NCBI GenBank assembly: GCA_023954855.1
Contig: JAGSGY010000015.1
Span: 8,553 to 72,552 of the forward strand
Length of the DNA stretch: 64,000 nt
Direction of reading: 5' to 3'
DNA from: Pseudomonadota bacterium
GTDB taxonomy: Bacteria > Myxococcota_A > UBA796 > GCA-2862545
Positions 21,238-24,715 of the stretch are shown in pieces. Made by a program: the position numbers and the translations under genes. Each line of letters starts with the position of its first letter. Position 1 is the first letter of the stretch. The notes beneath the pieces are model-generated. The model made no database searches, had not been told where the DNA came from, and worked only from the letters and a program-made list of their open reading frames with translations.

Positions 21238-22791
21238 ATGATCGTCTCCTGCCCCTCGTGCGAGGAGCGCTACAAGTTCAGCGAGGAGAAACTCGGCAAA
21301 CGAGGGGCCAAGATTACTTGCCCTAAGTGCCGGCATGTCTTCGTCGTTTATAAGGACCGGGAAACCGAGAGTCTCGGGCGAAAGTCGGCGGATGGCACCA
21401 TCACCGCAGACGAGCGTGCGACGGCCCAGCCCGCGCCTCCACGCAATCCGTGGCCTCGTGACTTTCCGACGTGGAGTTTTCGGGAGCTCGGTGCCACGTG
21501 GCGGGTGCGCAAGCTCCAAGGCATGACCTACGAGTTCTACTCGCTCGAGGAGCTCAACGGCTTCCTTGAGGAGCGGCAGGTCAGTCGGTCCGATCAGATC
21601 TCGATCGATGGGCGTGACTGGCATGCCATCGAGGACTTCTCGAACTTGACGGCCTACTTCTACGACACGTGGAAGCGCGTCGAGTCGGGCGAGATTCAGC
21701 TCGACGACGAAGAAGACGAAGAGGACGAGGCCGACGCGCCGACGACGATTATGGGTGCGGCGAGCAGCCTCGCTGACGAGATTCGTCGTGCGGTGCAAGA
21801 CGCGCGCACTCCAGCTCCGTCCCCAAGCCGTGTGTCGGCGACTCCAGCGAGCGCGACACCGCGAACGTCCTCTCCACGTGAGACCTCGCCGGATCAAACG
21901 GGCGATCACGCAGGATTCGTCACGCCCCCGCCGGCGCAGCCGAGCTGGGGCGGTCCGATGGATGAGCCCGAGCCGACCTCCAAGGCGCGAAGCTGGTCGC
22001 CGCCTCCACGTGAGCCGTCTCCTGCCCCGGCGCCCGCCGCGCCGGTGGTTCCACCCAGGCCCGAGCGCGCTCCCACGACAGGTGGGCCCTCGAGCTTTGG
22101 GAACGCCAAGCGTGGCTACGGGTCGAATGTGCCGCTGCCGGACGCCTCGGCGCCGATCAGCGCCCCCCCACCGGGCATCCATGACCCATTCACGGCCATG
22201 GCTCAGGATGGGCCACCTGCCCCGGCTTTCTCGGAGACCGTCGCACCCGAACCGCCGCCCAAGAAAGAGGCGCGGGCCTCCGGTGGTGGTGGCGGTCTTG
22301 TCGGCATGGCAATGGGGCTCTTGGTCTTGCTTGTGCTGGCGATCGCCGGTGGCGTTGCTGGGCTCAAGCTCGGTGTGATTCCCGCCGATGTCGTACCCGT
22401 GGACTTGCCAGCGGTGTTGCTGCCGACCGATGCCGCCGAGGCGGGCCCCGAGGGCCAGGCCGCTCCTGAAGGCGACGAGGGCACGGAGGCGGCGCCCGAG
22501 ACGGAAGAGGCCCCGGCATTCGCCCAGCCGGTTCCGGTCAAGCCCGCTCCCGTCAAGCCGGCGCCTGCTCCGGTGCCATTCGCCGTTCCGAAGCCAAAGC
22601 CCGTTGAGGCACCAAAGCCCGAGGCCAAGCCCGCCCCGGCGCCGTTTGTGGTGCCAGCGAAGCCCGCGCCCGTCGCCGAGCCGGAGCCCGAAGAACGGCC
22701 CGCGTTTGTCGTTCCGCCCAAGCCTGCACCTGCCCCAGAGCCGGAGCCCTCGGGCGTGATTGAATTGCCGCAGCCGGAGGAGGCCCCTTGA
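21238..22791 (+). CDS. MJ0042-type zinc-ribbon / GYF-like (DUF4339) / Pro-rich / TM protein
   Basis: [14 protein letters not shown]...[12 protein letters not shown] zinc ribbon. [50 protein letters not shown]-like. One TM helix ([16 protein letters not shown]). Pro/Lys/Ala low-complexity tail. Confidence 0.8.
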
Positions 22792-24353
22792 ACATCCGCT
22801 GTGAGAAGTGCGGGGTTGAACATGAACTGGATCCGCCGGCGTGGGTCATCGAGACCGGCCGTCCGTTTCGGTTTCGCTGCTCAAGCTGCGGTCACTCTCA
22901 CCTCGTAAATCTGCAGCAGGCCGCGGACGAACAGGCTGAAGCATCGCCCGAGTCCGCGCTGCAGGCCGCGCCAGGACCGACGTCACCGACCCCGCCCCCC
23001 GCCGCCCCACCCGCGCCTGTGGCGCCCACTTCGCCAACGGCGTCATCGCCTCCCACCGGGCCGTCTCCCTCGTCGACCGAGGACGTCTACCTCAAACAAG
23101 AGGGCAAGGTCTACCTCGTGAAGACCTGGGAGAACCTTGGGAAATGGATTGAGGAAGGTCGCGTCGGCGCCTCCGATCTGGTCTCCGAAGGCGGCGTGCG
23201 GTGGGCTCCCGTTTCGAGCCGCTCCGAGTTCGACAATCTCTTCAACGAGCCCGAGCCTGAACCTGAGCCCCAGGTGCCGGTGGCTCCACTCGAGCTCGAG
23301 TCGCCCTTCGGAAAAGAGACGCCCTTCGCCTTGGGCGCTGACCGAGAGACCCCGTTCAGCTCGAGCGAGGCGCCCTTCGATCCCTCTGACATGCCGTTCT
23401 CGGCTGCCGGAACGCCCTCGGCGCCGAGCGAGCCCGAGCCGATCTACCCGCCGGCCCTCATCGACGATCGAACCCCGGTGCCCGCTCCGCCGATGAGCGC
23501 ACCCACGCCGTCCAGGCCCACGCCGCTTCCGGAGCCCACTCCTGCGCCGCTGAAGCTCTCGGAGATGCCCACGCTGACCCGCGAGCGCTTCGCGGAGGTG
23601 CAGGACCTGCCGACCGGTGAGGAGGAGATGGAGGGACTGACGGCCGAGCGCCTGCCGCCGGCGCTCGGAAACTCTCTTCCCGATGCCGAGGCCGACGCTT
23701 TCTTCGACTCCTACAACTCGGAGATCCAAGACAGCGAAGAGGTCGACTGGACACCGCGCAGAGATCCGCCGATCTTGCTGATTCTCGGGGCCATTGTCGC
23801 ACTTCTCACCATCGTCGGCGCTGGGCTGTTCTTGTCCGGCGTCATTGGACCGGAGGAGGAGGCGGCCGAGCAGCCGATGCTCGCCGGCGCGATGACCGAT
23901 CACGATGCAGAACCTGCTCCTGAGCCGACGCCGGCCGAGCCAGCGCCCGAAGCCGAGCCCGAGCCTGAGCCCGAGCCCGAGCCCGAGCCCGAGCCTGAGC
24001 CTGAGCCTGAGCCGGAGCCGGAGCCGGAGCCAGAGCCGGAGCCCGAGCCTAAGGTCGCCCCCAAGCCGGCAGCCCCTCGGACGGCTTCGGTGAGCACCTT
24101 GGTGGACCGAGGGTGGGGCCAGGTCGATTCAGGCAACCTCTCAGCCGCCGAGGCGAGCTTCGGCAAGGCGCTCGCCAAGTCCCCGAGCCACGGGTGGGCC
24201 AACTACGGCTACGCCTACGTCCTGGAGCAACAGGGCAACAGTGGTCCTGCAGGTACGTATGCCTGCAAGGCTCAGAAGGGTGCTTCGAGCGACGTAGAGC
24301 TCAAGCGCGAAGTTGTTTCCATCCTCAAGCGCCTTGGTGCGAGCTGCGACTGA
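22788..24353 (+). CDS. Paralogous zinc-ribbon / GYF-like / TM protein with (EP)n tract and C-terminal TPR-like region
   Basis: TTG start with GGAGGAGG SD, overlapping previous stop. CEKCG...CSSCGH ribbon. GYF-like [60 protein letters not shown]. (EP)~24. C-terminal TPR-like helix pair. Confidence 0.8.
23953..24049 (+). repeat. Hexanucleotide microsatellite (GAGCCN)n encoding (EP)n inside the zinc-ribbon protein gene
   Basis: ~16 tandem GAGCC[C/T/G] units seen directly. In-frame, so length changes by multiples of 6 keep the frame. Confidence 0.8.
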
Positions 24354-24412
24354 GCGGCTGCCCGGGTTAGCTTGCACGCCACGCCGTCCCCAGAGGGACC
24401 CGGAGGATTCTC

Positions 24413-24715
24413 ATGGCCGAAAAGAACCTGGAAGACGACTACTTTGCCCGCCTCGATGCCGAGAAGCGCGAGGCCCTCAAGCGCCGCCTCGACGGCGAGG
24501 CCTCTGTCGCCGCGGACGACGCGCTCCGCGAGCTTCACCACTTCAAGTGCGGCAAGTGCGGGCACGACATGACCACCCAGCTCTTCCGCGGCATCGAGAT
24601 CGAGGTGTGTGGCACCTGTCAGGCTGTGCTGCTCGATCCCGGCGAGCTCGAGCAGCTCGCGGGCTCGGATGAAGGCCTGTTCAAGGACTTCTTTGGCTTC
24701 CTCGGCCGCAAGTAA
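24413..24715 (+). CDS. TFIIB-type zinc-ribbon (zf-TFIIB / DUF) small protein
   Basis: FKCGKCGHDMT...IEIEVCGTCQAVLLDPGELEQL fits the zf-TFIIB C4 ribbon pattern. GGAGG SD upstream. 100 aa. Confidence 0.75.
   Translation: MAEKNLEDDYFARLDAEKREALKRRLDGEASVAADDALRELHHFKCGKCGHDMTTQLFRGIEIEVCGTCQAVLLDPGELEQLAGSDEGLFKDFFGFLGRK

Follow-up and report, generated by a model that had tools for sequence, protein, structure and literature searches.

A tandem pair of zinc-ribbon and GYF-fold membrane proteins encoded beside a zf-TFIIB gene in uncultured bacteria labelled Myxococcota

What is the role of two adjacent genes that each encode a membrane-anchored protein with an N-terminal zinc ribbon (ZnR), a GYF-like domain, a single transmembrane (TM) helix and a proline-rich part? 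Such a pair lies on the forward strand of a 64,000-nucleotide stretch of contig JAGSGY010000015.1 (assembly GCA_023954855.1), the whole of which we refer to as the window, and is followed by a gene for a small zinc-ribbon protein; we call the three genes g1 (21238..22791), g2 (22788..24353) and g3 (24413..24715). Profile comparisons identify g1 and g2 as ancient tandem paralogues, and we lean, if only slightly, towards the reading that they form an envelope-spanning adaptor or switch resembling GltJ, with g3 completing the trio. GltJ (AgmX, MXAN_4863) of Myxococcus xanthus, a ZnR-linker-GYF switch of the gliding focal-adhesion machinery, was dissected in a 2024 study (PMC11135422); no other bacterial ZnR-linker-GYF protein has yet had its mechanism worked out.

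Three real genes in a conserved order

The g1 gene starts with ATG and encodes 517 amino acids (NCBI record MCO4744760.1, named 'zinc-ribbon domain-containing protein', from a metagenome-assembled genome (MAG) labelled Proteobacteria), g2 starts with TTG and encodes 521 amino acids, and g3 encodes 100. The tetranucleotide TTGA is common to the TTG start of g2 and the TGA stop of g1, which makes a 4-nt overlap; the start of g3 lies 59 nt beyond the stop of g2, and GGAGG-type Shine-Dalgarno sequences stand 6-11 nt 5′ of all three starts. A first-pass annotation of this DNA had given the same positions for the three reading frames, with the TTG start of the second overlapping the stop of the first, and these agree exactly with the coordinates of the open reading frames (ORFs). 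The small C4 zinc-ribbon gene that it placed 60 nt further on is g3, whose Zn_ribbon_TFIIB match lies above the cut-off.

As the GC content of the window is 66% and many long spurious ORFs overlap the trio region in other frames, an ORF list alone is insufficient to establish that these genes are real. One might postulate that the long proline-rich frames of g1 and g2 are artefacts of high-GC DNA or decaying pseudogenes; indeed, the middle and tail of g1 are of low complexity and rich in indels even relative to its closest orthologue (locus L006). The GC content at third codon positions nevertheless favours the called frames (0.75 for g1, 0.77 for g2 and 0.86 for g3, versus 0.64-0.72 in the overlapping antisense ORFs), the Shine-Dalgarno sites are in place, folded domains are predicted in both g1 and g2 with a pLDDT (predicted local distance difference test) around 90 or above, and the proteins are conserved over their full length in ~40 genomes with their TM helices intact. 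The comparative data effectively refute an artefact or pseudogene origin, to which we attach next to no weight, and third-position GC together with conservation in ~40 other genomes confirms that g1, g2 and g3 are genes and not chance products of high-GC DNA. A scan for promoters and terminators returned nothing exceeding the expectation from shuffled sequence.

A word-indexed search recovered only 7 close homologues of g1, a pattern scan of one genome per GTDB species recovered 42 loci, and an exhaustive search with hidden Markov models (HMMs) recovered 184 cluster representatives at E<=1e-30; the fetched loci were then scanned by HMM in six frames for gene order. A single same-strand order was found in ~40 MAG loci, namely UvrD, [ZnR-GYF], [ZnR-GYF-TPR] and zf-TFIIB, with the identity of UvrD to that of the window only 39-77% across loci. 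The g2 gene follows g1 in 41/41 loci whose contig extends far enough, the gap between the g1 stop and the g2 start is -4 to +9 nt in 24 of 33 loci, and g3 follows g2 in 25 of 32. The trio was also recovered in three independent contexts anchored on g3 (a Myxococcales MAG, a JGI metagenome and a hydrothermal-vent assembly), in which a hexapeptide-transferase gene lies upstream and arginine decarboxylase (SpeA) often lies downstream. The pairing of g1 and g2 thus holds up in comparative genomics, and the operon coupling proposed in the first-pass annotation is upheld by the short gaps across loci and by the TTGA overlap in the window. The best explanation is that the three genes are co-transcribed, translationally coupled and part of the core make-up of an uncultured lineage that goes under the label Myxococcota. 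Every carrier recovered is a MAG, with Myxococcota, Deltaproteobacteria or Proteobacteria as its label. The representative MAGs of six loci (L019, L024, L035, L037, L039 and L043) are titled Klebsiella, Bifidobacterium breve or Enterobacteriaceae; on loci of the Myxococcota type, these titles look like mislabelled submissions.

Paralogy and the ancestral architecture

A BLASTP comparison of g1 with g2 returned only a proline-rich low-complexity match, and profile methods were therefore needed to assess their relationship. The GYF profiles of the two align with 98.6% probability in hhalign (E 1.1e-15, 50 columns), the ZnR and GYF HMMs cross-match reciprocally between g1 and g2, and a tblastn search with the g2 GYF domain as query matches the g1 GYF region of other genomes. 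The suspected duplication is borne out by the GYF alignment and the HMM cross-matches, which point to an ancient tandem paralogy detectable at the profile level only.

The two proteins differ today in what follows the TM helix, and distant orthologues of g1 suggest how this came about. These proteins (~500-590 aa) carry a ~200-aa periplasmic region that ends in a TPR (tetratricopeptide repeat) domain, and this domain aligns with the C-terminus of g2 (hhalign 96.4%, E 1.2e-9). Because the two are homologous, the common ancestor of g1 and g2 had the order ZnR-linker-GYF-PRS-TM-spacer-TPR, where PRS is a proline-rich segment; the ancestral architecture had five parts (ZnR, GYF, TM, proline-rich spacer and TPR), with the TPR lost from g1 in the clade of the window. 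In the L002 and L008 lineages g1 ends directly after the TM helix and has no periplasmic part, and the proline-rich tail of g1 is absent or short in close relatives. Relative to the closest orthologue, in L006, g1 is ~86-90% identical over its first 200 aa, and the proline-rich parts are full of indels. The decay has been asymmetric: the TPR is gone from g1, as is the entire periplasmic tail in some lineages, whereas g2 has kept both. Such a pattern agrees with a complex that needs a single periplasmic head.

Zinc ribbons

The g1 zinc ribbon (21238..21348, aa 1-37; C5, C8, C28 and C31) is of the type found in GltJ and in ZitP of Caulobacter crescentus. It exceeds the thresholds of both Pfam Zn_ribbon_4 (PF13717; 50.5 bits vs a cut-off of 30.3, 2e-13) and TIGR02098 MJ0042_CXXC (33.9 bits vs 20.9, 1.8e-8), and its best matches among PDB sequences are the ZnR of GltJ (7zok, E 7.5e-7) and ZitP (2nb9, E 9e-6). 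In an AlphaFold2 (AF2) model of g1 aa 1-200, built with seven homologues, the ZnR has a pLDDT of ~82, and the first Foldseek match of this model in the PDB is the ZitP zinc finger (prob 1.0, 35% identity). No part of g1 is better conserved in our alignment A1 than the ZnR; its segment '[10 protein letters not shown]' is invariant there and is kept in the displayed g1 orthologues.

The g2 ribbon (22788..22910, aa 1-41; C5, C8, C31 and C34) is divergent and falls below the Zn_ribbon_4 cut-off (21.3 bits vs 30.3, E 2.6e-4). Its pLDDT is 90-95 in the AF2 model of full-length g2, and two scanned g2 orthologues exceed the TIGR02098 cut-off (24.2 and 39.1 bits).

The GYF-fold domains

Assignment of the central domains is less direct. 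Full-length g1 and g2 gave no match to Pfam GYF_2/DUF4339 (PF14237) at E<=1, for which the gathering score is 25.8 bits. When the central domains were cut from orthologues (19 of g1 and 19 of g2) and scanned singly against Pfam, GYF_2 was the most frequent family, found in 8/19 g1 and 6/19 g2 domains and always below the gathering score; the best E-values were 0.0019 for g1 and 8e-4 for g2, and the g2 domain of the window scored 0.03. The decisive evidence comes from AF2 models and from the retrieval of solved GYF domains by Foldseek. In g1 (21463..21693, aa 76-152; also aligned to g2 by hhalign), aa 71-155 are modelled as a beta-beta-alpha-beta-beta-alpha domain with a pLDDT of ~90, which retrieves Smy2 (prob 0.98), GIGYF1/2, Arabidopsis 1wh2, the GltJ GYF domain 7z3c (prob 0.82) and CD2BP2 from the PDB. 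The g2 domain (23082..23243, aa 99-152; pLDDT 90-95) has GltJ 7z3c as its top PDB match (prob 1.00, 24% identity), followed by GIGYF1/2 (prob 0.98, rmsd ~1.9 A). The Foldseek E-values of the GYF matches are modest (~5e-3 to 0.3). Judged by these models, the central domain of both proteins has a GYF fold, although it does not pass the Pfam model; almost none of the GYF domains of bacteria are reported to have the name-giving residues (PMC11135422).

The GYF-like call of the first-pass annotation therefore survives at the level of predicted fold and not at that of the Pfam threshold. The Pfam search that it proposed as a check came out equally mixed, as Zn_ribbon_4 in g1 and zf-TFIIB in g3 were recovered, whereas GYF_2 and the ribbon of g2 remained sub-threshold. 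The window does encode a GYF domain that passes: a 459-aa SPFH/Band_7_1 protein at 31325-32704 on the reverse strand has a canonical GYF_2 domain at its C-terminus, whose 33.8 bits clear the gathering score, and this match places a textbook bacterial GYF protein of another architecture in the same genome region.

A search for the canonical GYF ligand, PPG followed by a hydrophobic residue, raised one further candidate. The g1 linker of the window does carry such a motif (PPPGI); we dropped the idea that the GYF domains bind their own proline-rich linkers through PPG-hydrophobic motifs on the counts across orthologues, which are given below.

Membrane topology and periplasmic ends

Both proteins are predicted, by the positive-inside rule only, to be bitopic with the N-terminus inside and the C-terminus outside. 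The single TM helix of g1 (22285..22371, aa ~350-378), located by a Kyte-Doolittle scan and conserved in orthologues, is directly preceded by KKEAR; that of g2 (23766..23837, aa ~327-350), located by hydropathy and AF2, is flanked by RR on its N-terminal side and by EEE on its C-terminal side. The overall order of g1 is ZnR-linker-GYF-PRS-TM followed by a proline-rich tail (22372..22788, aa 379-517), a lineage-specific stretch of 139 aa with ~30% Pro, together with Ala, Glu, Lys and Val, in which no folded domain was found.

In g2, the order is ZnR-linker-GYF-PRS-TM-(PE)n-TPR. The TM helix is followed by a periplasmic acidic proline-rich spacer (23847..24077) that includes (PE)19, and then by a TPR-like domain of ~90 aa (24078..24350, aa ~431-521) with conserved C493 and C520. 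The C-terminus of the window's g2 falls short of the Pfam thresholds (TPR_16 23.7 vs gathering 32.7; TPR_19 22.5 vs 25). Precomputed TPR_16/19 matches exist for the orthologue of L002/L003/L005 and for a TPR-only extra gene in L048, and a distant orthologue matches several TPR equivalogs at ~1e-10; the C-terminus of g2 in the window is 40% identical to that of the distant L002 orthologue (E 2e-17). The claim that the tail of g2 is disordered throughout does not hold, as its last ~90 aa form a conserved TPR-like domain behind the (PE)19 spacer. The shared four-part architecture of which that claim was a part stands insofar as both proteins have a ribbon, a GYF fold, one TM helix and a proline-rich part, and it requires amendment where the tail of g2 ends in the TPR-like domain.

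Several smaller features of the two proteins were also recorded. At the DNA level, (PE)19 is encoded by the hexanucleotide CCGAGC repeated 19 times in perfect register with a period of 6 (23935-24049), which makes the repeat a likely hotspot for length variation; the contig of the closest orthologue (L006) stops short of this region. In g1, the GYF domain is followed by an acidic run and the motif '[27 protein letters not shown]' (21700..21822, aa ~155-195), which is specific to the clade in alignment A1. A post-GYF motif, '[18 protein letters not shown]', is conserved in the g1 clade of the window in the same alignment, and a helix at 179-190 of the AF2 model is of low confidence. The conserved motif strings also include '[17 protein letters not shown]', alongside '[FY]xDPF'. 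The motif '[FY]xDPF[AE]' stands before the TM helix at aa 314-322 (22177-22203), usually followed by a basic stretch (KQRQRDR-like); by an eye count from printed segments, '[FY]xDPF' occurs in roughly 27 of the 39 g1 orthologues inspected. An acidic 'D-E-x-P-T-x-I-G' motif follows the GYF domain in the clade of the window and precedes it in distant g1 orthologues.

The third gene

The g3 product is a predicted cytosolic protein with a charged N-terminal helix and a zf-TFIIB C4 ribbon, which scores well above threshold in Pfam (Zn_ribbon_TFIIB, PF13453; 36.9 bits vs a cut-off of 22, 2.4e-9, aa 45-82). Its nearest solved chain is 8yoz, an uncharacterised protein of the zf-TFIIB family. Homologous clusters number 431, and among the 120 matches listed, all those that are named come from MAGs labelled Myxococcota or Deltaproteobacteria. 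A literature search on 8YOZ and bacterial zf-TFIIB proteins found nothing, and one on DUF4339 returned unrelated papers only.

Some related loci have additional pieces between g2 and g3. In L007 (8042-9571), the TPR tail and g3 are duplicated in tandem; L048 (8296-8985) has a stand-alone 229-aa TPR gene homologous to the C-terminus of g2; and L050 (8313-8819) has a 168-aa gene.

Relationship to characterised proteins

By sequence and predicted structure, the closest characterised relatives of g1 and g2 appear to be GltJ and ZitP. According to the 2024 account of GltJ (PMC11135422), its GYF domain binds a proline-rich segment of AglZ, MglA-GTP and the ZnR compete for its linker, whose MglA-binding segment spans residues 86-107, and the freed ZnR recruits MglB. 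In the same account, 44% of bacterial GYF proteins are stated to have an adjacent ZnR, and it is chiefly in myxobacteria and planctomycetes that this ZnR stands N-terminal to the GYF domain. It adds that a flexible linker always lies between the two, that a membrane or receptor module comes after them in most cases, and that such proteins may be general switches with lineage-specific ligands. The class of ZnR, GYF and membrane or receptor module as described by Attia et al. 2024 fits g1 and g2, in which the ZnR is N-terminal, separated by a linker and followed by a membrane module. The class to which the pair belongs is therefore already known, and what appears to be new is this family, its organisation as a tandem pair with a zf-TFIIB gene, and its TPR head; the main text of Attia et al. 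2024 contains no description of a tandem duplication, a TPR head, a zf-TFIIB partner or a linkage to uvrD. Thus, when the first-pass annotation called such proteins poorly characterised, this was accurate for the family, which depositors have named 'zinc-ribbon domain-containing protein', 'predicted Zn finger-like uncharacterized protein' and 'tetratricopeptide repeat protein', and not for the class, which has been described with GltJ as its dissected prototype.

Could g1 and g2 simply be the GltJ (and GltG) of this lineage, acting in an Agl-Glt focal-adhesion machine under MglA and MglB? They share with GltJ a single-pass N-in topology, a C4 zinc ribbon with identical cysteine spacing, a disordered linker, a non-canonical GYF domain, a cytoplasmic tether, the TM helix and a disordered periplasmic segment, all in the same order. 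GltJ is also the best PDB sequence match of the g1 ZnR and the best fold match of the g2 GYF domain, the organism is labelled Myxococcota, and g1 has a weak N-terminal match to the NCBIfam gliding_GltJ model. That match, however, amounts to 26.2 bits against a cut-off of 450 for the equivalog NF033761 and covers the N-terminal 58 aa only (orthologues score 17-34 bits); GltJ has a TonB-C domain, while g1 and g2 end in a TPR-like domain or have no such end; the FHA domain characteristic of GltG is missing; and the similarity of the GYF domains to that of GltJ is undetectable by sequence. No TonB_C match was obtained in g1, g2 or the orthologues tested. The setting differs as well, since here a tandem pair and a zf-TFIIB gene stand beside uvrD and not in a glt cluster: a survey of the 64-kb window found no Mgl, Agl, Glt, Tol, Exb or pilus genes, and the conserved neighbourhood consists of the hexapeptide transferase, UvrD and SpeA, with glt, agl and mgl genes not among it. 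On the score, the lack of TonB-C and the lack of glt/agl/mgl neighbours, we ruled out g1/g2 as GltJ, and we regard a place in the gliding machine as very improbable. Somewhat more room is left for the reading that they are landmarks like ZitP, a bitopic zinc-finger regulator of polarity and pili (PMC5182063; PDB 2nb9), and would dock through the ZnR on a cytoplasmic scaffold of the pole or division site to organise an envelope machine, for instance a pilus. The N-terminal cytoplasmic ZnR of ZitP belongs to the same subfamily and, as noted above, is the top Foldseek match of g1; the linker and the one-TM bitopic topology also correspond, and the ZnR is the part of g1 that has changed least. Yet ZitP has no GYF domain, and in place of the proline-rich spacer and TPR it has a periplasmic DUF3426, to which neither g1 nor g2 gave a Pfam match; its partner PopZ is reported not to be present in Myxococcus (PMC11135422), and pilus genes are not found nearby. 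We ruled out g1/g2 as ZitP on the presence of the GYF domain and the undetected DUF3426, and consider a ZitP-like landmark role unlikely, if conceivable.

A third relative is suggested by the periplasmic part, as TonB, too, has a single N-in TM helix and behind it a proline-rich spacer of the (EP)n type. If g1 and g2 were transducers of the TonB/TolA kind, the TM helices would couple to a motor of the ExbBD/TolQR type and the proline-rich rod would pass force across the periplasm; the (PE)19 rod, a partial match of g2 to a TonB equivalog (E 1e-11) and the TonB-like nature of GltJ and GltG, the nearest characterised relatives (PMC11761067), speak for this. The equivalog match arises from the TM helix and EP repeats only and reaches 45 bits against a cut-off of 315; TonB_C and TolA_C domains are absent, neither TM helix contains a His and hence the His-containing TM motif of TonB, exbBD or tolQR genes adjoin the trio in none of the loci, the g1 of some lineages has no periplasmic part at all, and TonB lacks a large cytoplasmic domain such as that found here. 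Identification of g2 as TonB was ruled out by the lack of TonB_C, and force transduction by the pair seems about as improbable as a part in gliding. The last alternative starts from the neighbourhood and holds that the trio acts with UvrD/PcrA, tethering or regulating DNA repair or the resolution of replication-transcription conflicts at the membrane. Wherever a locus extends far enough, UvrD is the gene immediately upstream on the same strand, and in the window a gap of 52 nt, with no terminator predicted in it (the scan is weak for this GC content), separates it from g1. On the other side, the spacing between UvrD and g1 varies from ~30 to ~560 nt, the wider block of hexapeptide transferase, UvrD, trio and SpeA looks like a conserved housekeeping order, and no nucleic-acid-binding or UvrD-interacting domain was identified in the trio. 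The invariant adjacency keeps a link to UvrD in play, at odds that we consider poor.

A possible envelope-spanning adaptor

We return to the reading in which the pair forms an adaptor or switch of the GltJ kind. Plausibly, the g1 and g2 paralogues would form the heteromeric pair that the first-pass annotation suggested and assemble into a hetero-oligomer that spans the envelope, with a cytoplasmic ZnR-linker-GYF module, as in GltJ, joined to the TM helix by a long proline-rich tether. On the other side of the membrane, the proline-rich spacer, which is probably extended, would carry the TPR end (in g2, and ancestrally in g1) to a periplasmic or outer-membrane partner. Binding partners of the ZnR and GYF domains would be cytoplasmic and might include g3 or proteins carrying short linear motifs, and by analogy with GltJ the ZnR-linker-GYF unit could act as a conformational switch that couples the two sides, with g3 as its putative cytosolic zinc-ribbon partner. 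From the tight co-inheritance, the start/stop coupling and the asymmetric loss of the periplasmic head of g1 we can only infer heteromer formation, the ligands and the biological process, and the same caution applies to switch behaviour.

Several results weigh against this reading and account for our limited preference for it. Neither GYF domain attains the Pfam gathering score, and HMM searches of PDB sequences with both GYF alignments retrieved no GYF entry, GltJ included, so that the relationship of these domains to GltJ exists at the level of fold only. PPG-hydrophobic motifs occur in the proline-rich linkers of only 3/39 g1 and 4/32 g2 orthologues; as the motif is not conserved, self- or cross-binding through it is unsupported. 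The AF2 model of the C-terminal domain of g2 is unreliable, because alignment depth is lacking in that part, and the ZnR of g2, present in all other orthologues, is missing from the L002 lineage. The g3 gene does not adjoin g2 in 7 of the 32 loci, and the 64-kb window, besides its lack of Mgl/Agl/Glt genes, offers no other functional clue.

One may go further and suppose that a large uncultured Myxococcota lineage possesses a switch or landmark complex of its own that spans the envelope and has gone unrecognised so far. The trio would be the core of this complex, and a GltJ-like heterodimer with g3 as cofactor would use a disulfide-stapled TPR head to sense a periplasmic or outer-membrane cue and couple it to a cytoplasmic process. 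We offer this as speculation with a small chance of being correct in full. As uvrD and a GlmU-like gene are invariably linked to the trio, the coupled process could be related to the chromosome or cell wall and not to motility. Were it true, the switch principle of GltJ would have been reused outside gliding. Apart from this speculation, the trio represents a clean second ZnR-linker-GYF family, which combines a cytoplasmic module of the GltJ type with a TPR head in place of TonB-C; its duplicated pair is obligately co-inherited, a small zinc-ribbon protein is its dedicated partner, and it is conserved in dozens of genomes of uncultured Myxococcota. With such a family one could test how general the switch idea is and look for the ligands of bacterial GYF domains; because the carriers recovered are all MAGs, the proteins would have to be expressed in a heterologous host for experiments.

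Neighbouring genes

Upstream of the trio and on the same strand (17743..21185) lie a hexapeptide acetyltransferase gene (17743-18900) and the UvrD/PcrA helicase gene (18900-21185), which overlap by 1 nt at the stop of the former and the start of the latter. For the 385-aa hexapeptide protein, the match to GlmU is confined to the C-terminal half, the left-handed beta-helix acetyltransferase (model 219-448), and in most related loci the trio has this hexapeptide-transferase/UvrD pair in front of it. The opposite strand carries, a short way downstream of the trio (25311-26087), a gene for a 258-aa protein without a Pfam match; homologues with 34-35% identity lie ~7 kb upstream of g1 in L021, L023, L026 and L028, which indicates that the neighbourhood is kept and the position within it is not fixed.

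Two other regions of the window merit brief mention. An 803-aa homologue of SelO, a protein adenylyltransferase, is encoded at 36801-39212 on the forward strand, and its N-terminal extension of ~315 aa has no match at E<=1e-5; SelB, the selenocysteine elongation factor, is encoded 9 kb away on the same strand (26137-28026). Finally, a 993-aa protein encoded at 42187-45168, also on the forward strand, carries MopE-type copper-binding motifs and Chlamydia PMP repeats and is probably secreted or located at the cell surface.

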